Assembly (NCBI GenBank): GCA_951406725.2
Contig: OX597817.1
Location: forward strand, 66,216,001 to 66,280,000
Length of the DNA stretch: 64,000 nucleotides
Direction: 5' to 3'
DNA from: Octopus vulgaris
Taxonomy: Eukaryota
A model generated the notes under the pieces. It was given only the letters and a program-made list of their open reading frames with translations. It ran no database searches and was not told the DNA's origin. The position numbers were made by a program, and so were the translations under genes. Shown piece by piece: positions 16,362 through 34,641 of the stretch (positions within the stretch are counted from its first letter, which is position 1; the number at the start of each line of letters is the position of its first letter).

Positions 16362-16528
16362 CTGTTCCTTGTGGAATGATTGAACATTAAGAATATGATG
16401 ACCGGTCAAACCTGAGTGAACAGGGGGTGTGAACAAGTATGGAACAGGTTGAGCAACAGCCTGTTCCTTCTTGGCCAGAAGATCGTTACAAGGCAACGCA
16501 CTTCCGGTATACTCTCTAAGGATAGGTT
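16362..16528 (-). CDS. CAD: CAD exon (linker end, ATCase start): EPILREY...SGLTGHHILNVQSFHKEQ
   Basis: ttttaacag / gtaact, 167 nt, phase 1-0; matches the LxGxHILxVxxFxKxQ start of ATCase. Confidence 0.92.
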
Positions 16529-17921
16529 CTGTTAAAAACAAAAGCATAAAAAAATGTATGTACACACTGGAAGGACATACATCATACATACACTTATTCA
16601 TTCATTTGAAGATGAAGCTTCTTTCCATTGCTAGTTTCAGTTTTCCAAGACAAAGCAAAACAAGAAATGGAAAGTTACAAGTTCAAATAAATGAATAGAC
16701 ATTACACAAAACGTCAAAGCATTTTAAAATTAAAACTGCAAAAATCATTTGGTTAGAAAATATAGAAGATATTTGAAAGCCAGCCTTGTAAAATTTGTAT
16801 TAAGAAATTACCTCTGCTTACCAGTTGCTTTGAAGCTTTTACATACAAGATCCTTGGCCTAAAGCAGTTAATATGAGCCTATTAGAAAATGACTAAAATA
16901 TGCTGTCCATGCCACTGTGATTTGACTTTGTCAAAAACTTGGCAAAATAACTTGGTGTGGATGAGTGACTGTAGGAATGCAGTAAATGTTAGCAGTGGAT
17001 TTACAATGGCACCAATCATAGTGAAAGCATTTAAAAATCAAATGAAAATAGGTTAGTAACAATTGCTTTAGCATTAGTAATAAATAAGATTTCTAAAAGT
17101 ACAAAAAAAAAAATAGCAGCACAGTGATTATATGTCAGCAACAGCAAGATGCAGTAATGTCTGGAATACATAAAATAGCAGCAATCTCAAATTTGTTACA
17201 AAATAATACACATATTTATTCAAATTTAATTCCAAGTCGTCCTATTTACATATTCTATAAACCCAAAGGTTTATAAAATCACTCAAGTCTAATCTTCTAA
17301 CAGGGACTTCTACATGGTTGCTAATAAACTAGATATGCCAACCAAATCACCCTCAAATTACACCCCATTGTCTTAAAATAAGCAAAAAATACACTGAATA
17401 ACTATCCCAAGTATGCTATCTAAAGAAAAAAAAAAAAAAAAGATAGTCCCAAATAAAACATCTTTGATCATATAGAACTGTTTGACCAGTGATGACCTGG
17501 AGTTTAAGAACTCCAATCTAGTTTGGCTTAGAGAATTAAAAGATATCTAAACAGCTATTACTTCACCCCTTCCCAACTAAGCTTATCTACATAAATGTGG
17601 GAGAAGCCAAGAGGTAAGAGTGAAAATGGAAATGGACAGAGAAGCTAACTCCATATACAAATGAATACATTCCAAACAGTGATACACATCTCTTACATGA
17701 GCCAAAAAGAAGCCTTTATGCATTCACTAGATCTGCTAGAAAAAGCTGCCAAGTATCCCCTTAAGCTACACCCTACCATCTTGAAGAACCAGACTTAGGT
17801 ATACTGTCTGGAAAAAGAAGGGAGGGTCATGGCTGAAGCATATTTCAAATATCAGGCTGAGCTGGGGTTAAGCTATGTTATGTTTAGTATTGAGTTTTAA
17901 TTCTTTAACAAAAAATAAAGG

Positions 17922-18127
17922 ATAAAGATCCTTCTCAAGTCAAAGACTCACAAGGTTAGCTTCCTATATTCCCTACCTGGACGGCACGCCAGTCAGTCAC
18001 AAGATTACTCTTGCTAGCTGAGTGCACTGGAGCATCGCAAAATAAAGTGTTTTGCTCAAGAACACAGTGCATTGCAATCTTATGAGCATGCATCCAATAC
18101 CCTAACCTCTAGGCCATGCACCTCCAC
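17922..18127 (-). mobile_element. Degenerate SINE related to 15720-16050, opposite orientation
   Basis: Reverse complement has gtggaggtgcatggcctagagg head, ttgagcaaaacac and gctccagtgcactcagc. Confidence 0.55.
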
Positions 18128-18759
18128 TTTAGTCCTTTATCCAAGTTTAATACCTGCCTCTCTAATGATTTCCTCCTCAGGCTTAACAGTGGAGTAGAAA
18201 AGAACCATGTTACACAAACACTTTACTAAGTATGTTTTCTCCCTTATAGAGTGTGTAAAAGAAGGAAGCTCCAACCAAGTGGTTTCACTGGCATACAAGA
18301 CATGTAGAAATATAAAGATAAGCTATTACAATATTTCCCTGTCGCCCAAATCTCCCAAACCAAACTAGATGGGACTGGTGGATGGAATATTAAATAATTA
18401 GTATGAAATAAAAAAAAAATTCATTAGTTAACATAAATTCAAATAAAAAAGGAAATTTATAATTTTGTGAAATCCAGAAAAACTAAAACAGAATGTTTAT
18501 TTTTAAATATATTTAAGACATGAAAATGATAAAAACACAAAAATTAAAAGGGGAGAGAGGGAAAAGGTAAATGGAATTCGGGAACAGGAATTAAAACAAA
18601 AGGAAACCCTACTCCCCATCCCCTCAAAAAATAAGTTATATTCCAAAGAATATAAGATTTTTAAAGGTAGCATTAAGCTGGGAATTCATAATGGAGAAAA
18701 TTAGATAGTGTGATGCCATGGCTTAATAAACATTACAAGCTAAAATGGAAGTGACTCAC

Positions 18760-18783
18760 CTTTTGACTTTGAACCACCCATAA
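18760..18783 (-). CDS. CAD: Candidate 24-nt (30 nt if starting at 18789) CAD linker microexon (V)MGGSKSK
   Basis: Consensus donor AAG|gtgagt; two in-frame acceptors 6 nt apart, preceded by UGC motifs; phase 1-1; pyrimidine tract only moderate. Confidence 0.4.
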
Positions 18784-19820
18784 CTATTTCTTTCATAAGC
18801 ACAAAGCATCAGATTTATGGCAAAGAATGTGGGATGAAGTAACTGGCATGCCTTTCTGGAGAGCAATCTAGATCCTATAAAAGGGTCCTCACGATAGAAC
18901 AGGAAATATTTACTTACACTAGCTTCTGGTGCAAAACTATTTTTTGCAGACATAGAGTGAGGGACACCTTTAAAATACACAATATTAAACTTAGCATGCC
19001 AGGATGGGTGGAGCAAAACCATAATGTAACGGAAAGCACACGATTTGGAGAAGGAAAGATATATAAAGCAAAAGTGATAAACAGTCATTTCAGGACCTAA
19101 TTTTGGTGCTTTTGAGGCATCTACCTCAATCATTAGGCTAAACATACCTAGATTTGATCTTCCAAAGAGTATGAACACAATACATTGTTAATACATTTGG
19201 AAATGTGTTCAATTTTGCACAAACTAAATGCTCAACAGATAAACTGACAGAGTTGGAGAAGATTGTTCTAATTTACACTAAGTTAGCAGTCAATACAACT
19301 GACAGTTATAATAGTAATGTCAAAGCCACAACAGATAAAGAAGAGGAGAATGAGAAGAACCGACTAGAACAGCAAAATTGTTGAATCAGTTTCTATAGTA
19401 ATTCAATAAATTGGTAAGCAAAAATGCCAAATTTCAGGCAAAAACCCCTAAATAAAGGTTGAAAGTTGAATTGTAGAGGCATGTGCCTTTTATATGTTGG
19501 GAATTTTGTTGGAAAACCTGAAACTTAGATTATTGGTTAATAACTTTTTTTAAAGCCTTGATCAAAGCCATTCCAGTCATAACAACCTACTCATTAGAGA
19601 CAGTGTATCTAAGACAACATGACCCAATGTTTTTTTACCTTTTCAAGATAGCAAGATCTACTATAAAGGTTTGCCTGCTATTTCTAAGTTTGAATAACTG
19701 TATGTAACTCCATTATTGGTGGTTGATTTGGAACTTATGCTTATCACTTGTACAATCACAAACCATAGCCCAACAATTCATGATACAGTGAAATATTCAC
19801 AAGCTGCGTTAATATGTATG

Positions 19821-19859
<39 letters not shown>

Positions 19860-19860
<1 letters not shown>

Positions 19861-20910
19861 GAGGATGTGTAAAGTATTTGAGGATACACTTTTTATTTGA
19901 TTATTGCTGTATTTTTTGCTACCTCTATATAATCTTTTTTTTTTTTTTTTTTTTCAGAAAATAATAATGGCAGACCTTCAGCTTATTCAAGAAATGAAGA
20001 AGCATGTTATCATGGCTATAAAGGCTGAGCCTTTAGGAATATCTCGATTTTTGGAAGTTGCCAGATTTTTCATCTACAAAGTTTGTAAGGAGTTAGAGAC
20101 CAAAGGTGGAAATGTATCACCAGTATCAATGCATAAAAATCATCAGAACACTTGAATTTATCCAGCAAATTCAACAGACCATTGATCACAATCCCAGAAA
20201 ATCTATGAGGTCAATTGCAAAAGATATCCAGGTGTCAGAAGGAACAACCAGTAACGTTGTCCACGAAGAGATCAAATATAAATCTTATGTGATGAGGAAC
20301 GATCAATTTATGTCAGAAAAAGCAAAATAAAAAATTGCTACATCAGAGCCGTTTGGCTCTTCAGGAAACTGAAAAAACCAGCAGAAGATTTGATTTGGTT
20401 TTTCTCAGACAAGAAAAACTCATACCAAGATCAAAAAGCTAACAGAAGAAATGAAAGATGGTTATGTGCAGACCCTTCTAAAGTTCCACGAGTTATGCAT
20501 ACAAAATTTCCTGCAACTGTCATGGTTTTAGGAGCTGCCAGCAATGAAGGACATGTGATGCTGCCTTACTTCTTTCCAACATTGCTGCATACATTAAGGT
20601 CCTGGAAACAGATGTTAAATCCTGGATATACAATGGAAAGCCTTGTGTGTTTCAGCAAAACTCTGCACCATCACACAAGGCTTAAGTGATGCAGGAATGG
20701 GTGGCTGAAAATTTTCCTAACATAACCTCTAACATTTGGCCTCCTAATTCTCCAAATCTCAATCCATTGGACTATTATTATGTTGTTGAGAGAAAGGTCA
20801 ATAAACACCACAGTCAGAGTAATGTCCAAAATGAACCAGGACCACTTGATTTGAGCATGTAAATGATTTAGATCTCATATAGAAGCAGTTGTTATAAGCA
20901 TAAATACATA
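19860..20910 (+). mobile_element. Decayed maT (DD37D-like) Tc1/mariner transposon
   Basis: Frameshifted remnants IDHNPRKSMRSIAK, WFFSDKK..Q..NRRNERW, TKFPATVMVLG..SNEG, WPPNSPNLNPLDYY; ends approximate. Confidence 0.85.
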
Positions 20911-21655
20911 TTCTTATATCAATTCTAATGCATGCCTTCCCCCCCCCATACGCACACACCAGTTTTCCTCTCACCACCCAGTTACACTGCCTATAACACC
21001 AACCACATGTCTGAGTGAATGAAATTAGAAAGTGTATGAAGGGAGAAAGACAGGTTTTCTTGCCTAACAAATAAGATGATGCCAAATCTAAATCAGTTGA
21101 CCTTCGTGTTCCACAAGTCTGCCAACATGCTGGAAACAGCAGCCAAATCTTCTTCACATCACAACAGCCTATCTTAAAGCATATACTGAATACAGCTCTT
21201 GATACACACAAAAAGATGGAACAGCTGATCTGAGGCTAAAAACACAACTGCCAATGGAGAAGAAGTGGGGGGAAAAAAGCATCTACTTAGTCAACCGGCC
21301 AGCTAGAAATAGCAACCAAAATCCCTCGAGTAACATCCTGCTGTTTTAAATCAAGAACTCATTGAATAATGTAATTGGCATAAACTGGGACTGGATCACT
21401 TGGAAGCTAAGTGTTTTCCCCAAAAAAGATATAACAATGCTAATGATAAGATTATATACTGCTAATGTCTTGGTTGCTGGTTGCCCAACCACTTACTGAT
21501 TCAGCCATGTTTGCTTTCAAGCTGCATAATATAGTAGTAACATCGCCCCCTATGTAGTTTTCTCCCTGACATCTGATTTGTCATTTCTTGATTGAAAAGC
21601 AGGTTGAGTGATCACACATTGGCTTTTCTTCATTGGCTCTAACTTGGTTGTTATC

Positions 21656-21741
21656 GTTTAGTCTCAGATCAACTGTTAACCAGTTGTTCCAGTTAACCAC
21701 TTGTTTAGTCTCAGATCAACTGTTAACCACTTGTTCCAGTT
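21656..21741. repeat. Local duplication of gtttagtctcagatcaactgttaacca(g/c)ttgttccagtt
   Basis: Two near-identical ~38-bp copies about 47 bp apart. Confidence 0.85.
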
Positions 21742-23342
21742 GTGCCATCTAATCTTTTTGTAAAAGAACTACATTATCCAATATATTATTGAAGGTTGTA
21801 AGAGGTGATAAGGAAGATTTGACTTCTATTTTCAGCAGGTTTAGTGATTATGTAGAAGCTCCTTTATGGAACAGAAAGACCAGTTGATATATATTGATGT
21901 TATATTACTTGTTAAGCAACCTCTCTTACACTTTCCATTTCATTCTTTCAGAGAGATGGTTGGTGTAAGAGGCTGTGTGAGTTATGTATCATTTAGGGAG
22001 GGTGAGGTAGGTGCTGAAAAGGGCTGACAACCATTCAGTTAGATATACAGATGTACCTACATTAGCATCGATGAGAAAATAACACACACACATATAGAAA
22101 CTGACAACAGAAGATGAAATTTTAATTTTCGAAGTCACAACATTGATGGAAAATAAAAATATTATAAATGGGGGAAAAAACAGTTACAAAATGAAAAGGT
22201 TTAACTGTATGGCTAATAGTTGCATTGCAACTATAAGGTTCTGGGTTCCATTCCAGTGTGTGGCACTATGGGCTAACATCTTTCATAACCTTATAAGTGA
22301 AATTTGCTGGAGAGAAATTTTGTGGAAGCCTGTTTTATATATAAAAATATGTGTGTGTATGTGTCTGTGTACGCACGCATGCACGCTAGTATGGGATGAT
22401 TGACATTTACACCCTGTACTTTGTATAGGGCTAAACAACATCACATAAAGGATTTAGAAATGTACAAGCTAGATTCATCAACAGAACCAATAATTGATGT
22501 AGGGGTGGTCACTAAGCTAGCAATATCATACATCAATACAGAAAATTCATCAATGGGTTTGAGGATACAGACCAAGCTGGATTCAACAATCAATTAATGA
22601 TTTTAAAGACACACACTGAAGTGGGTTAATCAGTACACATCCCACAAGGAGAGAGAAGAGACAGATAAAATTAGAATATATCTATGAGATGTAAAATGTT
22701 GAAATGCTTAAAAGAGCATGCAAATTGGCCATAACTGGGCCTTTCTCTCTTCCAGGTTGTTGGCTATACAACATTGTCAAGAGGACATGAGATCTGCTCT
22801 GTGAAGTAGGCTTATGAGGAGTCCACTACTCCACTGTAGACATTCAGTACTATATCCAATGACAACCAGTCTTCTGAATCCACAAACACAGATCAAGTGA
22901 TGGCACAAACAATAGAACATTAACAGAATCATAGTAACTTCAATAAGGGATTGTTTTTATTTTGGAAGATAAAGTGTGAATGTGTGTGCTTATTATAGAA
23001 AACAAGTGTGATTAAATGTGTATGTATGTTTATGTGTGGACCCGTGAAAATGCATGTGTACCTGCAAATAAACCATGTAGAAACAAATCATGCATGTATA
23101 CACTTACCCTGCAAACATAAACATATATGGAGATTTGCAGGAAATTGCATTTAAGTGCAACATGCTAGTATTTCTGTGTTAGTGCATGTGAGTATGTGTA
23201 TATGTACATGTCATATGTAATTAGAGTGTGCATGTGTGTGTGTAATGTACATATCAATGGTATGAAAGACATTAAGGCAAGCAGGCAAGGAAACCAACTG
23301 ACACATGATGATGAGGATCATCTACCATCATCATCGCTGTAC

Positions 23343-23360
23343 CTTGAAAACATTTTCCAG
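23343..23360 (-). CDS. CAD: Candidate 18-nt CAD linker microexon (A)GKCFQ
   Basis: ctctctcttctctctttgcccttcag|CTGGAAAATGTTTTCAAG|gtacag; phase 1-1; UGC near the AG; long pyrimidine tract. Confidence 0.55.
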
Positions 23361-23560
23361 CTGAAGGGCAAAGAGAGAAGAGAGAGTGGGGAAAATAAAG
23401 AGAAAATGAGAGATGAAAGATAGAAGAAAAGGAAGTGAAATAGTGTTTAAGTAGAAACGGTAAGAAGCAGGAAGGCAGATGAACAGAGAAAGGGGATGTT
23501 AACAGGAAGACAATGGGTGGAAGTAGGAGTTATAAAGAAAAAAAAAAAAGGAGTATATAC

Positions 23561-23596
23561 CTGTGCCAAGCTCCTTGGAAGTAGGTTCTAAGTGAT
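23561..23596 (-). CDS. CAD: Candidate 36-nt CAD linker exon (D)HLEPTSKELGT
   Basis: taacctttccctccag|ATCAC...GGCACAG|gtatat; phase 1-1, no stop, strong acceptor. Confidence 0.65.
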
Positions 23597-26500
23597 CTGG
23601 AGGGAAAGGTTACAACAAGAAGTGGAGAACAATTATAAAAAAAGCAAACAGAAAATGTTATAAATTAGGAAATAAAGTTGGGGAACAGAAAATCTCAAGC
23701 AATTCCAACACCATGTATGAGTGTGTGTATAATGAATATGAGTGCATATACATATATGTGCATGTAGTAGAGAGTATCTAAGTGTAACAAATCATGAAAG
23801 ACACCCCTACCCAGCAAAGGGTAGGTGTATGACTATATAAACTGGTTTTAAGCAATCTAATTATCAATGCAGCCAATGGCAAGATTGGCAGGATTAAATA
23901 TTTAGAGCTTCAGACAAAATGCTTTCTGATATTTAGTTATATCCCATACATTCTTAGTTTAAATCCTGAGGTTACTACCGACTTTACTTTTCAGCTTATC
24001 CAAGGGTTAATAAAAAAAAGGTACCCATCAAACATTAAGATCAATCTATCATATCCACATCCCATTCTCCATCAAACATTTGGGGCCTGGTGCATATGTT
24101 AAAAACAATACTATCAACATCAATTCAGTCCAAATTAGAATACAGCGGATAAATCAATTACTGGTATCAATTACAGGTATCTACATTCAGAGTTCAAAGA
24201 GTATTGGAGTTGACCATCGACAAAATACTGAACATGTACGGGAGCTGATAAGCTTAATTACATCTTTTTCCAGAATTCATAACCTTGAGTTAAATTTAGA
24301 AATCATCCTCATCAAAAACTAGTTCTTTGAATTTAACTGTAGCTGTTTTAGTCTGACTCCTTACTCACTTCCCCGTTTCCAAATTTCATTAAGTACAACT
24401 TTATTTTCCTTAACCCAAATGTAGACTTGTGTTGGAGGTCAGTAAGTGGCAGGAGTAAATAACACTCAGCTCAACTGATTAATAGCTTTAAAAGTGTCAT
24501 TGAAAACTGTCTTTGGATTCACATTATTTCCCTTCGGTGGTTGTTAGATCTCGTTATACTAAAAACAGATGCCCTGCCTCTTCTACAGCATGATGGGAGA
24601 AATCAGAACAGTCTCACTTTGCCCACCTATCTAAAAAATAACTAACTAGAATTGATAATATACTAATAATAACGAACAATATTTATAATATACTAATAAT
24701 AATGGACAATAAATTTTTGAAACTAGTTATGCAAATAAATTTTTTTAAAGTAGTCTTTTAACCTGCTTTCAACCACCCACTTCAAGCTGCATCACACTAG
24801 CAGAGTAAATATTTTATTTACTGAGTGTATTTAAATAATAATTTCTAACACAGACACAAGGTCAGGAATTTGGAGAGAAGAAAGAACAATTAACTATACT
24901 GAAGCTAGTAATCAGAGTTTATTTTATCAACCCTGGAAAGAAAAATAGCAAAGTTGACCCCAGTCGAATTTGAACATAAAAAGTAATAATTAAATATAAG
25001 GCATTGTGTTAGATGCTGTAATAATTTTCCAATTTAATGCACTTAATAATAGTGATATATATATATATATTATTTAAAAGAACCTAATATGAATGTGTGT
25101 ATTATGAATACATATGTAGACATAATCTGTATGTATATTTACATGCACACACACTCACACAAAACAGAAATTGAAAGGGATTAAAAAAGAAAAGAAACAA
25201 AAACATCAACAAGAATACCAACCATTCAAAGAGATTAATGAAACCTCTAGTGCACATGCACATAAAAACACTGTTTAAATTACTTTCAACTGAGCCCTAG
25301 GAATAATTTTTATTGACAAAACATGCTGTGTGAGGATAGCTCCATCTGATAAGCTGCTTTATTCTTACACTGCAATGTTTAAAGTCTCATAAAACGTCAT
25401 GTGTACTTTCTTTGATTAAGTCATGTAAAAACACACACACAGTGGCTGACTCAGTTCCACATAAAAGTTTTGTGGGTGAAAGACATTACCACACCATCAA
25501 ATACATAGAATGAGAAAATTTAAAGAAATTTAAAAATAGGTATCAAATAGGGACATATAGATCTACATTAGTTAGTTTAGGATAGATGGGTTCTTTAGCT
25601 AGCTAGTGACAACAGTTTTATTACATGCTCCAAAAGGCCAATCAGTTGGCGTTCTCTAGGGTGTGATATTTCGGGGACAACAAAATATGATGCATGAGGA
25701 AATAACTAGTTAGGTGTTGTCAAAATGCATGACAAACTAGGTGACAACCCACAGTTATGATACACTAAATAGGCAATAACTTCCCTAGAGGTGGCAGGGA
25801 ACATAGACCTTCCAATTCTATGTAGGATGGAATTTCCAAGTTATCAGCAGTTAATGGCTTGAAGACACAAGCTCAAAGTCTTTTGCAGTGAGACGGAACC
25901 TAGATCCACATAATTGTAAAACAAACAACTTGTTAACATTCCATATATTCATTATTGTGTGTAGTGAGTAGAGAAACAATTGTAATAACAAGGTTTCATT
26001 TACCCCAGCTCCACAAATCTTAATTATTTAGTGCCGATTCATTAAGCAAGGGAATAGTTATATTGGTTCAATCAAATTTAAAAGGCAGAGCACTTTTGTG
26101 GTGGTATTTAAAAATACCTTAAACTTTTAATAAGGAATTTTATAACTTATAAAGCAACTAGCAAAAAATAAGTTTAAAATAAATGGTTTATTTTTTTATC
26201 TCTTTGAAAGATTCATAATTCATAGTTACAAACTGAATTAATACTCTATGGATTAAACAAGCATAAAATAAATGAAAATAAAACACACACTGTGAACAGT
26301 TTACGTAAGATTTAGAAATAGTAAAGAGTGTATCAAAGTGTATGAAAGTGTTTAGCAGTAGAATGAGAATGAGTATAGAAGTTATAGAACAATTTTAAAG
26401 AATGGAGGGAAGCACTCAAAAGCCCATGAAAGGTGATGGCAACTGAGTAATTGCTAGTGTTTTTATAATGTTTAGTGAGAATAAACAGAAGGAAATGAAG

Positions 26501-27305
26501 TTCCACAACTGATTGTGAGTGAGCATATGTGAAAAAGTGATGAAATGTAGGAAGTCAGGTACTAGAACTCTTGGACTTAAATGTTTCCTTCAAAACGTAT
26601 CTTAAGTAATTTAAAGTGGAAAGAAAACAGATGTGGCAAGTTTGAAAAGACCATGTACATTATTGCAATAGCAAAAACAGTAGAATGAAAGTACAGCACA
26701 GGTTTTAAAGTGGAAAGGTTTGGGAAGTAAATGAATAGCTCTTTGAATACAGTCATGGATTATAAGAACAATACTTTATTAGCAATTGTATTAAGGGCAT
26801 CAGTAACTAGTCAGTGTTAAAGTTCTTAATCTCAAAGACAGAAAAGTATTTTGGATGGCAAAGTTTTAGGTATGCAAACGTTTCAGAAGAGGTTACAGAA
26901 ATATATTTCTTCTGGTTTGATATCATCATTGCATTTTGATATTGTTAAACACAGATTCCATTAAATAGATGTAGAAGACTGTAGAGGGATTGTTGATATT
27001 AGGAGCGAATAGATAGATAATGAGGTTAGAACTATAAAGAAGAGTGCTGCATCAACATGGTTAGTAGTGAGAGAAAAGTCAAAGACAAAAAGATTCAGGT
27101 AGATCATCCAAAAGATTTCAAGAAGTTTGCTGCAGTTTATGGGTTAGGTGTTTGAGAGAAAACAGTTAACATAGTATGTATAAATAAGTTGCAAGTCCTA
27201 GTATACCCATAAGATGGGACTTTGTAGCCAAGGGATTTTGAATCCTACTTTGTTGAGTTTGCTAAAAAGCAACAGCTTTGGTTTCATCATTGTAGTTTAG
27301 AGTTG

Positions 27306-27354
<49 letters not shown>

Positions 27355-27503
27355 CGTACATGCCAGCATGGAACATGGACGTTTAATGAAAACGATATTA
27401 TATAATACACATATATATATTCACAAACATATATAAGATACAAGGAAAGCATCAGTAAACATTAATGCAATCAAATAACATATAAGCACACACTAATATT
27501 AAA

Positions 27504-27563
27504 TACCATTTGCTACATCACAGTAGCTACCTGTACCACTTGCTACATCACAGTAGCTACCTG
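27504..27563. repeat. 30-bp tandem duplication
   Basis: tacca(t/c)ttgctacatcacagtagctacctg x2, one mismatch. Confidence 0.9.
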
Positions 27564-28906
27564 TGTTTATAAAAGAACATCTTGAATTTAAGGTATGACG
27601 AGCACTGAAGTAAATGTTACTTCAGTAACTGACTGCCCATCAATCTCTGAAATTTACAGTGCAAAATGAAATACATTGAAAAATTGCTGAAATAGAAGTA
27701 TTACAAGGGTTACATCAATAGCTCAAGCCTGCTTAGCTCACAATAAAGAGACCAGGGCCTTAAAGCTTTAAAAAGAATTGCTTCAGGCCACAAATAAGAA
27801 AGAAGGTAACTGACAGTTTGAAACATTTATGTTATTATAAATACATCTGAAATATATTACAAATTAAGTAAGTTAGATAGACGGATATGGAAAGTAAATG
27901 ATAACTGTTTGAAATATTATAAATATAAATCAGAGAGAGTGAGTTGAAGAGACAGTTAGAGAGAGAGTGAGAAATTATTACATTTATATGAATAGACTTT
28001 TTCCTTTTCTACATTTTGCACTTTAATTTCACTAGAAATCACAGCGGTTATCCTTTAGTTTCACAATAAATTGCACAAGCAACCCTTTTAGCTGCAGCAA
28101 GGAATTCTACTGTTATCTTTTTATTTCAGGAGGAATATTCTCAAGCATGCCATGAGCTACAAAATGGCAATATAAACACTCTAAAATTGACAGTATTATT
28201 AGCTTGCCTTTCAACCTTTCAGATATTAGTAGAAAGGATTACTTCCATTATTTCAAATTCCAGAGTCTGACTTTGCCTCAAGGTCGTTGAAATAAATACC
28301 AGTCAGTGTAATCAACTAGAACTCTCTCCCAAAATTCCAGGCCTTGTGCTTAGAGTAGAAAGGATGATTATTATAGTCTTATCAATTCACATTCTACACA
28401 TATGGCCATGCAGTAAATGTATATAGGCATAACTTGTAAAAGGAAAATGAAATTCTTTAATGTTCATGCCTTAACACGAGTGAAGTGAGCCAGCTATTAC
28501 CAGGAGGAGAAACTGAACTTCTGAGCTGCAGATTTTGCAGTATGATACTCTTAAGCAATGCAAAGATGAAAGTAAAATAAAAACGTAAGTGAAACTACCA
28601 ATTTAGATACAAAGCTCTAGAAATTGTAGGGCCATATGGCAGTCATGTCTTCTTTCTCAAAAACATTCAGCACAATAAAACCAATCCAACTGAGAATCAA
28701 GATGAGACCGATTTCATTTGTAAAAACGATTTATGAATGAAGACAAAAAAATTATTAACAGTAATTTGAATAAGTAACTTGCTGAAAGGACTGAAGGCAA
28801 CATCTATTTAACAGAATAAATCTCCAAAGCCTTGCAGTTTTACTGTCTAAAATAACGATGATGATGAGGTTTTAAACTGGCTGAGAAGTAGGTAAAAGGA
28901 CACAAT

Positions 28907-29058
28907 CTTTTCTACTCTAGGCACAAGGCCCAAAATTTTAGGGAGGGGGCCAGTCAATTAGATCGATTCCAGTTGGCAACTGGTATTTAATTTATTGAAC
29001 CTGAACAGATGAAAGGCAAAGTTGACCTCGGCAGAATTTGAACTCAAAATGTAAAGAC
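28907..29058 (-). mobile_element. Older SINE-like dispersed repeat fragment (related pieces near 2930-3100, 8550-8640, 24840-24980, 28260-28365)
   Basis: Recurrent blocks aggcacaaggcc, atgaaaggcaaagttgacctcggc, atttgaactca seen at several places in both orientations. Confidence 0.6.
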
Positions 29059-29246
29059 ATAATGAAGTAGTAATAACCACAGCATATTATATTAATACAA
29101 TATTGTATTAGTTATAATTAACAAACAGTTATATACTGCTGCCAGTATTATTTCATTACACCCTTTTACATACTTTTCAGCCAATGTAAGACATCATCAT
29201 TTTAGACAGTAAAGCTGCAAGGCTTTGAAGGTTTGTACCGAGTGTA

Positions 29247-29294
<48 letters not shown>

Positions 29295-30413
29295 TTAGGG
29301 TGGAAACAAAGTTCCTGCACAACTTTATATATGCTTATCTATTTACTGATTTACATACATATAAGTATGAACATTTTCATCATTTCAGAGCTAAGTTCCA
29401 AAAATGGTCCAGGAAATGACTCACAAACAGCTATGTACTTTATCAGTGTATGATTACAAGTCCAGCCTAAATCACAACCAAGCATTTGGAGAAGACACAC
29501 TGTTGTCAAACAGTCCACAATGGGTTTAAGAAGTTTCAGTGTGGCCAACTCAATCAATATCCAAGACCAGCTAAGAAGTGGTCAACCCTCACTTAATGAC
29601 AATGATCGTTTGTGTGTCTGTATCAAAGCTGATCCACACCAGACATCATGTAAGCAGGCTGATAAGTTTGGCTTCAGCCAGTTTGCATTATTTAGAGGTA
29701 ATGGGCAAAGTCAGCAAACTGAACGTATGGGCCCCATGTAAACTGACAAACTTTGTCAATGCCACATAGATACCTGCAGGACACTACTGTCCAAGAAGCA
29801 TCGTTTTGATTGGCTGAACAAAGTGGTTACAGAAGATGAGAAATGGTGTCTGTACTCGAACATGATGCAAAAGAAGCTGGACAGACAAGGGTACAACTGC
29901 ACAACCCCAAGCTGACCTGTATGGGATATGAAGAGCGTGATTTAGGGGGAAATGTTGGAATGCAATCAGACCATCAATGCTCAATTGTACCGTCAACAAT
30001 TGCAATGGGTGGCAGACACAATTGCACAAAAACGCCTGGAATTGACTAATTATCATGTTTCTTCATGATAACAACTGACCACATGGAAATTTCACTCGTG
30101 AAAAACTTGAGCTGGAGTGAGAAGTTCTCCCTCATCCAACCTGGCACCAACAGAATACCACCTATTCCAGGCAGTGTAGACCTTCTTGAATGCCAAAGCA
30201 TTCACAACTGATGATGAACTGATAACAGCATTTGGAGACTTCGATAGCAAACCAGTTGAATTTTACAACAAAGGCATCCATGATCTACCCCATCACTGGA
30301 AGCAAGTGACTGAAAATAACAATTATTATATTAATGTTTGATATGTGCTTTTTATTGCATTGCCTCATCGTATATCATTGTTAATAAAAGTTGTGTGAGA
30401 ACTTTGTTTTCAA

Positions 30414-30419
<6 letters not shown>
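29295..30419 (+). mobile_element. Decayed mariner (DD34D-like) transposon, both TIRs present
   Basis: TIRs ttagggtggaaacaaagttcctgcacaacttt / aaagttgtgtgagaactttgttttcaactttta; remnants RSGQPS, VWAPCKL, VTEDEKWCLY, LAPTEYHLF. Confidence 0.88.
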
Positions 30420-30446
<27 letters not shown>

Positions 30447-30448
<2 letters not shown>

Positions 30449-31510
30449 TGAGATTGGTGAATTGTCACCATTTTATATTTTTAATTTCATGCATGCGCAT
30501 TGTTTGTTTTTGATTTTGTCAACTACACAGTATAGTAGGGTCAGTTGGGCACCATCTGTGAGAAAAACAGCACCATGATGCAAATCACTCTGCCACAAAT
30601 TTGGAAACAATATGCTGTACTGCTTGGCATCTGCACCAGAAGCTCCAACACGAACATTTCAGAGTGTCTGGGTGTCAATTTGAGATAAGTGCAGAAGATT
30701 CGGAAAGAGTTGAATGAGTCTAATGCTGATCACAAAATTACGGCAGCTCAGAAAACTCACCGATTGTTCTTATAAGAAAAGAACTCCTGAATTTGTTGGT
30801 GAGATCCAGGCCATGATTGACAATGATCCCTCCAAGTCAATCAGGTCCATTGCCAGGGACATGGGAGTGCCTGAGTTTCTTATCAGGCAGGTAGTGCATG
30901 AAGACATTCGGTATTCCTAATACAAGATGAAAGACCATGCTACAAAGCTTTTGAACAAACTCAAGCATCCTCTCCAACCAAACATGCTTTGGTGTTTCTC
31001 AGATGAGAAAAATTTCAGCCATGATCAGATGGTGAAGACAACAGCTGTTGGTTCGCTGTGTCCCCAAAACATGTACCGAGAGTGATAAAAATCAAACATC
31101 CAATTAACATCATGGTGTTTGGAGTGGTCACTAGTGATGGCAATGTTATGCCTCTATTGACCTTCCCACACAGCCTCAGACTCAACACAGGGGCCTACAC
31201 CAAATGCCTGGAGGAGGTAGTGCTGCTGCTGGAAGACCCTTTGTTTTGCAACAGGACTCTGCACCATGCCAGACAAGCAGTAGAACTTAGTCATGGCTGT
31301 CAGACAATTTCTGCGACCACATCACCCCTAACATCTGACCACTTAACTCCCCACACTGCAACCCTCTTGATTATTTATGTAGGGCGCATTTGAGCAAGAG
31401 AACAACAAAACTCCTTGTAACACTCGAGATGAACTAAAGGCAAGGATTATGGTAGCACACACACCAACTTAAACAAGGAAACAGCCCAGAAGAGTTGCAG
31501 GGGATTCCAG
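30447..31510 (+). mobile_element. Second decayed maT (DD37D-like) transposon
   Basis: Remnants MIDNDPSKSIRSIARDMGV, FSDEKNF, KHPINIMVFGVVTSDG; homologous in protein to 19860-20910 but a distinct family. Confidence 0.85.
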
Positions 31511-32384
31511 TCATTTCTTAACAACTGCAGTTCAGGTTTGATCCCATTGTTTGACACCTTGAACACATATCTTCTATTAGACTTGGGTTGACCAATACTC
31601 TGAATGAAATTTGGGAAATATAAACTTGTGCAGAAGCTTGTCATTTATATGGCCGACTGAGTTATCTCTCATTAAACTAAGGTCAACTTTTATGAACTTA
31701 AAAGTATTATAAGTACTGACATTCATATGACAATTGACTAAAAACTCTTGAAGATATGCCCACATCCTAATTACCAAAACCAAAACGACATATACACAAC
31801 ACACACACGTGTTTTAATCTATTTGTAAAAAAGAAAAAAAATGAACATAAATTAGTTCAAATAGCTAAAAAAAGAATTAAGAAAAGACTAAACACTGCAA
31901 AACAAAAAGAACTAAACTAATTTTATCCCCTAAAAGCCCAGAGATAAAATTATATTCACACTTGTCAAAGTAAGAACCACACACATTATTATATATATAT
32001 ATATATACACATACATATATATATATATATATATAAAGTGAGAGAGAGCTACTTATAGATTTGCAAGGCAGTGGAGTGTTAAGAGAAATAAGGGTGAGGA
32101 GAGAAGAGAACAAAGGAAAGCCACAACATAAACAAAATCAATGGAAGAAGATAAATTGAATTATTAGGTAAGAAAGAAAAGTGAGTAACAAAAGAAAAGC
32201 ACAAACAAAAGGGGTCTAATTGGTAGGCCTTAGGTGTAAAAGTTGATATTGGTGTAATGATCACTTGAACCAGAGGAACTAGGGTTATACATGGGTAGGG
32301 AGGGGAAGATAAAGAAAGAAAAGCAGAAATTGAAAGTATTTTTTTTAAAAATAAAAGTAAAAGACACAGGCAAACCAGTGGTAC

Positions 32385-32417
32385 CTGCCAACTGTTGTAT
32401 TTTTCTGTCTGGTTTCC
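32385..32417 (-). CDS. CAD: Candidate 33-nt CAD linker exon (G)KPDRKIQQLA
   Basis: cccattccag|GGAAACC...TTGGCAG|gtacca; phase 1-1, no stop, preceded by a ~200-nt pyrimidine-rich tract. Confidence 0.55.
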
Positions 32418-32916
32418 CTGGAATGGGTAAATGTCAAAGGTCATCATTATTTTACAGATAAGAATAGAGACAAGGAAATAGGGTAAAAAGGAAAGGGTGA
32501 AAAACAAAAATGGGAGGGAGAAATACAGGAAAAGGGATGGAGAAAGAAACAAAGAAAAAGAACAAAGCAAGAGAAACATTTTAAAATTATAAACAAAATA
32601 AAAATAAAGCTTGAAAATAAATAAAAAAGCATTTAAAGGGACAATTTTCTGATGAGGTGAATGGAATGGAATGGGTAAGATGGTGGGACATAGTTGTGCT
32701 ATCTAGATCCCCACATGTTAATAAGGCTTTTTTTTGTTTGTTTTTGTAGCAGTTGGAAGGTGATCAGACATAATGAAAGTATCACAAACACAATTATCTG
32801 TATGATCTGCCAGTGTCTCCACAAAATTCAAATGCAGTGGAAGTACCATCGTAGCTAACTGCCTTTGATGATCTAGTTAGAGGAACAGAAATGAAGATAC
32901 ACTACTAAATATTTTA

Positions 32917-32919
<3 letters not shown>

Positions 32920-32968
<49 letters not shown>
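32920..32968. repeat. (TG)n microsatellite; other long (TA)n tracts at about 15284-15317, 27308-27348, 30419-30446, 42837-42870
   Basis: Direct reading. Confidence 0.95.
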
Positions 32969-32971
<3 letters not shown>

Positions 32972-33534
32972 CCAACTTATTAATGAAAACAAAATTCTCC
33001 ATAACGATATTAATGGAGATTCAATAGAAAGAAAACTGCTCTCAGTTTAGTGACCTCACTTTGATAGTATCAGTTAATACAATGCACAAACTTTTACACA
33101 CCAAGCATGACAGACATAAATAAAATTAAATACTACGTAGCAGTAAACCAGATAAATTCTCAGAAGATAAGCCAACACCAACTCGCTTCTCCCCTAGCTA
33201 ATCTGAGAAGAAAACCTCAAGATACAATCATTATACCCCCAAATTTTTCATCTCAATCTGTCAACATAGTCTCAAGAAAGGAATTGGTTCCTTGCAGTAA
33301 ACTAACACAAATTCTTACTGCTCATATATACATGCATGTCAATACACAACTTTCCAATTTGTTTAAAAAATAAATATTGGTCTGGTAGTTATCAGGGATA
33401 ATCCAATGGCCAATCAAGGTTAATGATAGAGATGATGATACAAATGCATAGAATAGTATCATATATAACTTGTAGAGTGATGTTAGTACTGAGTAAGTGA
33501 TATTATCAGAGTCATGTTAATGCATGCTCTAGAC

Positions 33535-33702
33535 CAGTGCTCCGCAACCTTTTTTTCACTTGCGGTACACATTCTTTTCAAAATTCGGTGGCCCACCTGA
33601 ACTAAAGAATATATAACTAAAAGTATAGAGGAAAAAATTATATTCAGGTTACACTGCAGCACACCTAGCATCATCCTGTGGTACACTGGTTGCGGAGCAC
33701 TG
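33535..33702. mobile_element. hAT (Charlie-like) MITE (168 bp)
   Basis: Perfect 15-bp TIR cagtgctccgcaacc; 8-bp TSD ctctagac / ctctagat. Confidence 0.9.
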
Positions 33703-34364
33703 CTCTAGATGAGATATTAAACATATTTACAACTTACCTGGTACTAACTGTTTACACATTACCATAGGAAACACTTAGTTTAGTTTTGACAGTAGTTTAT
33801 TGACTAGACATTAAAAGCAGGTTACATGCTGAACTCTTTTCACAAACAGCCAACCTGTAAAAGGTCAATCAGTAAACCCAATCTCTACAAGTGTCATGGG
33901 GATATTTTCATATGCAACCAGTCTGTGAAGATGGTTGAGGGAACCATACAAATTTGGATGATCAACAGATATATCTTGGAAGTTAAGATCCTGAGGAACA
34001 GCCACCAAGTGTTCCTGTGTAAGGTACATAACATCTATTGATCTTTGTCCAGGTAACATGCTCTACACTCTTGTTTTACAGATGAGTGAGTGATTAGCAG
34101 GAAGAGCATCCAGCTATAATAAAGCAACTTGTTTAATAACAATATATAGTATTTAAATTTGCACAACCCATGCTGACATAAACAAAAAGTTGAAAATAAG
34201 AAACCATCCTGCTTCAGTGACTGCTGGGATTAAAACACTACTTAATTCAGCAATTCATGTTATTATTATGAATGTGAGAAAGAGGAAAACTGGTAGAGAG
34301 AGAGAGAAAAAAAAAGGGTGGGGAGAGAAAGGACATCCAGAAAACATTTGCTGTTTTAACTTAC

Positions 34365-34641
34365 CGTGATGATAAACAGTCTGGTGAGATTCATGTGTTG
34401 GTTGTGACATCTTTGGAAGGCCACGACCAGGGAAGGCAAATGGGCCAGGCTGGTTGCTGGCAGCAGTTAGTGTCGTTGATGGAATCATTTTACGGGGGCT
34501 TGTTGGTTCAGATGGCGGCTGTGACAATGATGCCATTGTCGGAATCTGAACAGTCAACTGCTCATTGATTGGTAGTTGATGATTTGATGTCGGTTGTGGT
34601 AATGAGCGAACATCTACACCGAATCCTGGTTGAACCAGAAC
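34365..34641 (-). CDS. CAD: CAD exon (end of DHOase + Pro/Ser/Thr-rich linker): VLVQPGFGVDVRSLP...PTSPRK...TVYHH
   Basis: actcag / gtaagt, 277 nt, phase 0-1; starts with the conserved VLVxPGxGxDVR. Confidence 0.93.

Follow-up and report, generated by a model that had tools for sequence, protein, structure and literature searches.

The 64,000-nucleotide (nt) stretch of the Octopus vulgaris genome analyzed here (GenBank assembly GCA_951406725.2, contig OX597817.1, positions 66,216,001 to 66,280,000; hereafter, the window) carries on its minus strand the 3′ three quarters of the gene for CAD, the protein that controls entry into pyrimidine synthesis. The linker between its dihydroorotase (DHO) and aspartate transcarbamoylase (ATC) domains is interrupted by a giant phase-1 intron. 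Two small exons within it, A (33 nt) and B (36 nt), are real cassette exons that are already annotated and under-studied. We consider it probable that these two independent in-frame cassettes lengthen the octopus DHO-ATC linker in a regulated manner, tuning its reach and a kinase site. In octopus alone the significance is modest, both solid exons being present in gene models already. What is new are a credible third exon, the conserved optional use of exon B and a recurring bilaterian splicing site in the CAD linker. The known regulation of CAD is by allostery and phosphorylation; if the inserts are regulated, splicing would add a neglected level of control directly next to the mTORC1/S6K1 site.

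Exact peptide matches between the protein P0275 and the window placed 32 exon blocks and 31 introns, corresponding to residues ~613-2267 (the N-terminal ~610 residues are encoded beyond the window). Pfam recognized GATase, CPSase, MGS, amidohydrolase and OTCace domains in this one chain, which makes it a CAD protein. The linker encoded in the window is identical to that of the O. vulgaris protein, including the QPVPY that reads QPAPY in O. sinensis and O. bimaculoides. The first-pass annotation had singled out the linker intron for its size, and the mapping bore this out: the skip form measures 17,836 nt versus 126-3,072 nt (median 930) for the other 28 mapped introns. Inclusion of both annotated cassettes splits it into 1,947, 8,788 and 7,032 nt. 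The upstream flanking exon runs from VLVQPG to TVYHH plus the G codon base, and ends in phase 1 at the donor ACG|GTAAGT. All 24 words sampled from it were found in 19 listed sequencing runs from 8 studies, none of which is recorded as RNA, so that this result is uninformative either way.

The octopus CAD cluster has 15 members, namely 12 isoforms, one Argonauta model and two short fragments. O. sinensis (XP_029635733-36), O. bimaculoides (XP_014788813/14/15/17) and O. vulgaris (CAI9721148-51) have four isoforms each, of 2244, 2255, 2256 and 2267 amino acids, which differ solely by GKPDRKI(Q/L)QLA and DHLEPTSKELGT, present singly or together. Both inserts match the window DNA at 100%. The annotated isoforms X1-X4 are therefore exactly the 33- and 36-nt exons of the window in all four combinations. 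Both exons have canonical AG/GT bounds and a frame-preserving length, and inclusion and skipping forms of both are on record in the proteins of the three species. Ten of the 11 residues of exon A are kept in O. bimaculoides, and this exon was seen in Octopus species only. The first-pass annotation had proposed combinatorial splicing of a set of four exons and left open whether it was already annotated. The combinatorial part holds for A and B, which are in public gene models; the 18- and 24-nt segments occur in none of X1-X4, and their peptides in none of the proteins compared. Annotation pipelines normally require RNA support for isoforms. By reasoning, the 2 × 2 set is not a bookkeeping product, because each isoform requires its own junction.

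Exon B was also traced in a second cephalopod lineage. Seven long proteins (P0164 and P0290-P0295) form the sister group to octopods in a quick tree (Shimodaira-Hasegawa-like approximate likelihood ratio test support, 100/96) and share 84-85% protein identity with octopod CAD; they probably belong to squid or cuttlefish. The full-length members are single open frames on ~7 kb contigs, and for this reason the contigs are probably transcripts. P0164, P0290-92 and P0294 carry at the same junction a counterpart of exon B, DHLEHSTKDLST or DHLEHSAKDIST, and P0293 and P0295 omit it; there are two sequence types, with one skipping protein in each, and the forms come from two proteomes. Exon A is in none of the seven. 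Exon B is identical to the two counterparts at 7/12 and 6/12 residues, and each flank at 12-14/36. An [S/T]-x-K motif, present in 14% of 12-residue linker windows, is kept in all three versions. Judged from these proteins, the optional use of exon B is conserved across cephalopod lineages.

Four segments of the intron, exons A and B and the candidates C (18 nt) and D (24 nt), are AG..GT bounded on the minus strand, stop-free in phase 1 and G-ending, as the first-pass annotation had described, and retranslation of the full-inclusion form reproduced the translation given there. These formal properties were rejected as evidence. The intron holds 2,902 AG..GT segments of 6-60 nt; 540 of these keep the frame and lack stops, and 102 have a terminal G as well; since so many segments satisfy them, the formal criteria alone are weak. 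The splice context of A, B and C, unlike the formal criteria, exceeds chance. A splice-site position model was trained on the remaining donors and acceptors of the gene (29 of each), with the tested segments held out, and applied to 539 in-frame candidates. Exon B (8.6 bits), candidate C (7.8) and exon A (7.7) took the first three places, followed by a candidate at 5.0 bits; candidate D came 23rd (-2.8). The AG-free zones before A, B and C measure 190, 95 and 198 nt (4 nt for D; intron median, 11), and four zones of at least 150 nt were observed versus 0.26 expected under a first-order Markov model. The top two pyrimidine-rich 100-mers of the whole minus strand of the window lie just upstream of 32417 (0.89) and 23360 (0.85). 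Of the three segments that the first-pass annotation had placed behind the most extreme pyrimidine tracts of the intron (A, B and C), B has a less extreme tract than the other two (0.75 over 100 nt). The zone before exon A has 18 CU-type motifs versus a median of 6, and the downstream flank of this exon is pyrimidine-rich too. Features of the linker region are collected in Table 1.

Table 1. Features of the CAD linker region in window coordinates. Ranks are those of the splice-site model among 539 in-frame candidates.
Feature	Positions	Strand	Length and remarks
Upstream flanking exon	34365..34641	-	277 nt; codes for the DHO end and the beginning of the DHO-ATC linker
Phase-1 linker intron, skip form	16529..34364	-	17,836 nt
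AG-free pyrimidine-rich zone before exon A	32418..32607	-	190 nt; 0.78 pyrimidine over 200 nt
Cassette exon A	32385..32417	-	33 nt, GKPDRKIQQLA; annotated; rank 3/539
Cassette exon B	23561..23596	-	36 nt, DHLEPTSKELGT; annotated; rank 1/539
CU-rich stretch between exon B and candidate C	23361..23560	-	200 nt, AG-free over 198; 32 CU-type motifs
Candidate microexon C	23343..23360	-	18 nt, AGKCFQ; not annotated; rank 2/539
Candidate D	18760..18783	-	24 nt, VMGGSKSK (or 30 nt from 18789); not annotated
Downstream flanking exon	16362..16528	-	167 nt, EPILREY...FHKEQ; codes for the linker end and the beginning of ATC

Candidate C starts 200 nt past exon B, with a CAG acceptor, the donor AAG|GTACAG and a UGC at -10. 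Upstream of it, pyrimidines make up 0.93 over 30 nt, and 100 nt contain 14 UCUC/CUCU motifs. An equally good donor in frame is available to only 20 of 861 AGs, and one of 1,872 out-of-frame decoys scored above candidate C. The CU-rich stretch that separates it from exon B would act either as the acceptor tract of C or as a regulatory element for exon B from the downstream side, and we give even chances to candidate C being a real exon. Candidate D has the second-best donor of 1,077 GTs, five upstream UGC (at -18, -25 and three more positions; 1.5% of windows) and a poor acceptor; its 30-nt form ranked 10th and its 24-nt form 23rd. An in-frame AG precedes four of the six strongest intron donors regardless. 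With its poor acceptor, D is probably a decoy and unlikely to be a real exon. Exons as short as 18 nt are often missed by aligners. The peptides of both candidates (KCFQ, GGSKS) are in none of 13 named octopod and seven long sister-lineage CAD proteins, an absence that is weak evidence where exons are as short as 18-24 nt. The linker exon set is then 2 × 2, perhaps 2 × 2 × 2, and not 2^4.

The first-pass annotation had also likened the segments to neural microexons of the eMIC (SRRM3/4) type. The architecture of these exons is described in the available portions of PMC8797185 and 10.1101/2024.09.17.613571, where UGC is present in only 74-79% of known targets, and their defined length is 3-27 nt. 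Candidate C alone fits: it shares the length, the long AG-free zone, the UCUC-rich tract and the proximal UGC. Candidate D has the length and lacks the long AG-exclusion zone with a UCUC-rich tract, a feature that A and B do have; A and B differ from eMIC microexons in exceeding 27 nt and in having no UGC closer than 50 nt (none within 93 nt of the 3′ splice site of exon A; the only one upstream of exon B at -50), and neural or eMIC control is not supported for these two. In general, O. vulgaris splicing is reported to peak in neural tissue and not to be unusual among invertebrates (PMC9699675).

Further AG-free pyrimidine-rich zones (106-136 nt) lie on the minus strand at 26289-26740 and 18374-18610, but none is followed by an exon that scores well. 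At 18330-18374, a 45-nt candidate was discarded (splice-model rank 72). At 23062-23108 (minus strand), 235 nt past candidate C, a 47-nt AG..GT segment has the top score of the short candidates (9.5 bits); because it is out of frame and brings an immediate in-frame stop, it might be a poison exon. At its beginning the sequence can also be read as CAG-G-GTAAGT, with an acceptor, a single base and a strong donor.

Linker inserts are not confined to cephalopods. Among 42 animal isoform sets, hand-picked from 30 clusters listed, 32 had an indel in the linker, which is ~6% of the protein (a 2-residue difference between Culex isoforms was scored as no event). By group, the counts were 7/7 in molluscs, 1/1 in amphioxus, 22/24 in vertebrates, 2/9 in insects and 0/1 in cnidarians. 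The first insert residue and the residue after the insert are both GNN-coded in 23 of 25 inserts (0.08 by composition), and the two that fail lie at other positions; this pattern would fit one shared phase-1 intron without proving it. As in octopus, the cassettes of non-mammalian vertebrates, amphioxus and gastropods are short inserts that keep the frame, at a junction compatible with G|NN on the downstream side of SP[RK]...F-x-[LF]-P (e.g., Acipenser X1-X4, Ambystoma X1-X4, Branchiostoma X1-X4, Patella X1/X2 and Haliotis rufescens X1-X3), with no similarity to the octopus exons evident by eye. Sturgeon, salmonids, bichirs and salamanders resemble octopus further in having two tandem cassettes, a basic one followed by a charged one, and one vertebrate cassette is recognizable from sharks to amphibians. 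The linker search with full-length octopus CAD returned three clusters only, that for the linker exons among proteins of 162-2000 amino acids gave no matches, and no cephalopod CAD was among the 26 of 150 profile-scan hits whose linkers were inspected.

Some of these proteins have features of their own. In P0315, P0329, P0359, P0505 and related vertebrate CADs, the phosphoserine motif is followed immediately by the tandem pair of cassettes; one is basic and variable, the other E/K-rich and conserved, and the latter begins with a match to the human phosphopeptide. In Branchiostoma (P0338, P0343 and P0346), a 34-residue linker insert adds a second RxRxxS motif; B. belcheri-type models have a 14-residue duplicate of it. 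A second amphioxus cassette, of 27 residues, is located nearer the beginning of the linker. Two Haliotis rufescens isoforms (P0288 and P0286) differ by one residue at the cassette acceptor, which suggests a NAGNAG site. Lepidopteran CAD models of 2,850-2,940 amino acids (P0445, P0456, P0464 and P0403) cluster with or are named beta-galactosidase in several moths and may represent either fused gene models or shared exons.

The vertebrate inserts begin 5-6 residues past the serine of HR-x-SDPG, which would correspond to human Ser1859, the S6K1 site. The human phosphopeptide in the available part of PMC2773716 runs from this serine into the start of the cassette segment, and the segment that it reaches is skipped in some shark, fish and salamander isoforms. 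A PKC site of human CAD, Ser1873 (PMC8508918, in part), would fall within the span of the vertebrate cassette segment if the HR-x-SDPG serine is Ser1859. The link to S6K1 drawn by the first-pass annotation is weak in cephalopods. By eye, the human peptide has R at -5 and -2, Octopus FAFPGRGLPKMSQ has R at -6 and K at -2, a shifted serine block, and the sister lineage has KMPG or KLPG at the equivalent position, with the serine missing. A scan for RxRxxS/T found none in cephalopods, yet it missed the vertebrate site too and is not a valid test. Structurally, the middle of the linker matched no solved chain. The portions seen of PMC8442968 and 10.1101/2024.07.30.605799 describe the human linker as a low-confidence, phosphorylated 96-residue segment that, in the published hexamer model, fills gaps between carbamoyl phosphate synthetase (CPS) domains, and propose that its phosphorylation favors oligomerization. 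The available text of the reviews PMC8442968 and PMC8508918 does not mention linker splice isoforms, and literature searches at the level of titles and abstracts turned up no paper on CAD linker splicing.

A mechanism can be proposed from these observations. The boundaries of all exons read G|NN in phase 1, and any subset of exons would preserve the frame, so that A and B offer extensions of 0, +11, +12 or +23 residues. The cassette donors are weak (2.6-3.6 bits versus a median of 6.4 for the other donors); together with the long AG-free CU tracts, this would make inclusion dependent on pyrimidine-binding regulators, for example PTB-type proteins. As the hexamer model puts the segment with the inserts into gaps between CPS domains, changes in length and charge would affect assembly or phospho-regulation, and exon B would supply a predicted PKC-type [S/T]-x-K motif. 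The inserts may then adjust the reach, charge and kinase access of the linker, leaving catalysis and the active sites untouched. A third, 18-nt microexon is a possible addition to A and B, and the site is probably one old phase-1 intron in which small exons were gained and lost repeatedly. The natural series of 0, +11, +12 and +23 is a ready test of the effect of linker length on hexamer assembly.

Several points weigh against regulated tuning of the linker. The isoform evidence consists of annotation and assembled contigs, in the form of protein records, and those of O. vulgaris may depend on the O. sinensis and O. bimaculoides models. Exons A and B are both missing from the single Argonauta CAD model; exon A contains neither Ser nor Thr, and searches located it in Octopus alone. 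The sample of 42 isoform sets is biased to names with 'isoform', its vertebrates are not independent and it includes no mammals. Insert sequences are unrelated between phyla, homology of the intron is read from protein position only, and the junction lies at different distances past the F-x-[LF]-P block (16-17 residues in chordates, 25 in cephalopods, 31 in Haliotis). The loose motif [S/T]-x-[K/R] is missing from 12 of 25 inserts, and phosphorylation of Ser1859 is said to influence catalysis or allostery only slightly (review PMC8508918, as far as its available text goes). The disordered linker may simply be where in-frame exons are tolerated. This last point leads to the strongest alternative, which we regard as possible though not probable: small in-frame exons arise in a long intron, the disordered linker is indifferent to them, and the isoforms behave alike. 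The lack of relationship between phyla, the confinement of exon A to Octopus among the proteins seen, the seven of nine insect sets without a linker insert and an intron with decayed transposon remains, whose length suffices for exons to arise, agree with it. Against it, exon B is both kept and optional in two cephalopod lineages at 84-85% protein identity, with conservation at least that of its flanks, the tracts around exon B are the strongest in 64 kb, and one vertebrate cassette stays recognizable from sharks to amphibians.

A neural eMIC (Srrm234) program, with three or four linker exons switched on in neurons and an 18-nt microexon missed by annotation, is unlikely as a whole; its probability overlaps with that of regulated linker tuning by A and B. 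It draws on candidate C, which combines a 198-nt AG-free zone, a UCUC-rich tract, the UGC at -10 and a weak donor as in Drosophila with its high rank and specificity, and on how frequently exons this short escape aligners. Against it, the 18-nt peptide is absent from all 20 long cephalopod proteins, its tract may be a downstream element of exon B (exon A has a pyrimidine-rich downstream flank too), and the sole YTRAY branch-like motif lies 142 nt away. A and B are too long and have no proximal UGC, and the acceptor of D is poor, its in-frame AG being of a kind found upstream of most strong donors anyway. It is very improbable that annotation pipelines created the isoforms as artefacts, by copying between genomes of near relatives. 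In favor of this, identity among the three Octopus proteins is 98-99.8%, and all three share one set of four forms, but contig-derived proteins of the sister lineage show both forms of exon B, and the splice model found A and B blind. A bolder extension of regulated tuning, which we hold only tentatively and consider unlikely in full, would make an ancient phase-1 intron beside the mTORC1/S6K1 site a bilaterian splicing socket. It would receive lineage-specific exons, give tissue-specific or mixed hexamers and include the 18-nt segment as an octopus neural microexon. Within that proposal, and at the same low likelihood, the exons would bring kinase sites: the vertebrate cassette over the Ser1873 position, RxRxxS in amphioxus and [S/T]-x-K in cephalopod exon B.

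Rfam gave no matches in 16529-32400. A related pair of decayed Tc1/mariner-like transposase remnants lies on the plus strand at 20097-20874 and 30714-31393 (tblastx E 6e-13), with Pfam HTH_Tnp_Tc3_2 and DDE_3 below cut-off. A third mariner-like remnant, at 29454-30341 (plus strand), was recognized by eye from open reading frame fragments and has no Pfam hit. Transposons were rejected as the whole cause of the intron size, as they account for ~2.5 kb of 17.8 kb only. The intron also contains two 30-nt tandem duplications, at 27504-27564 and 24651-24711.

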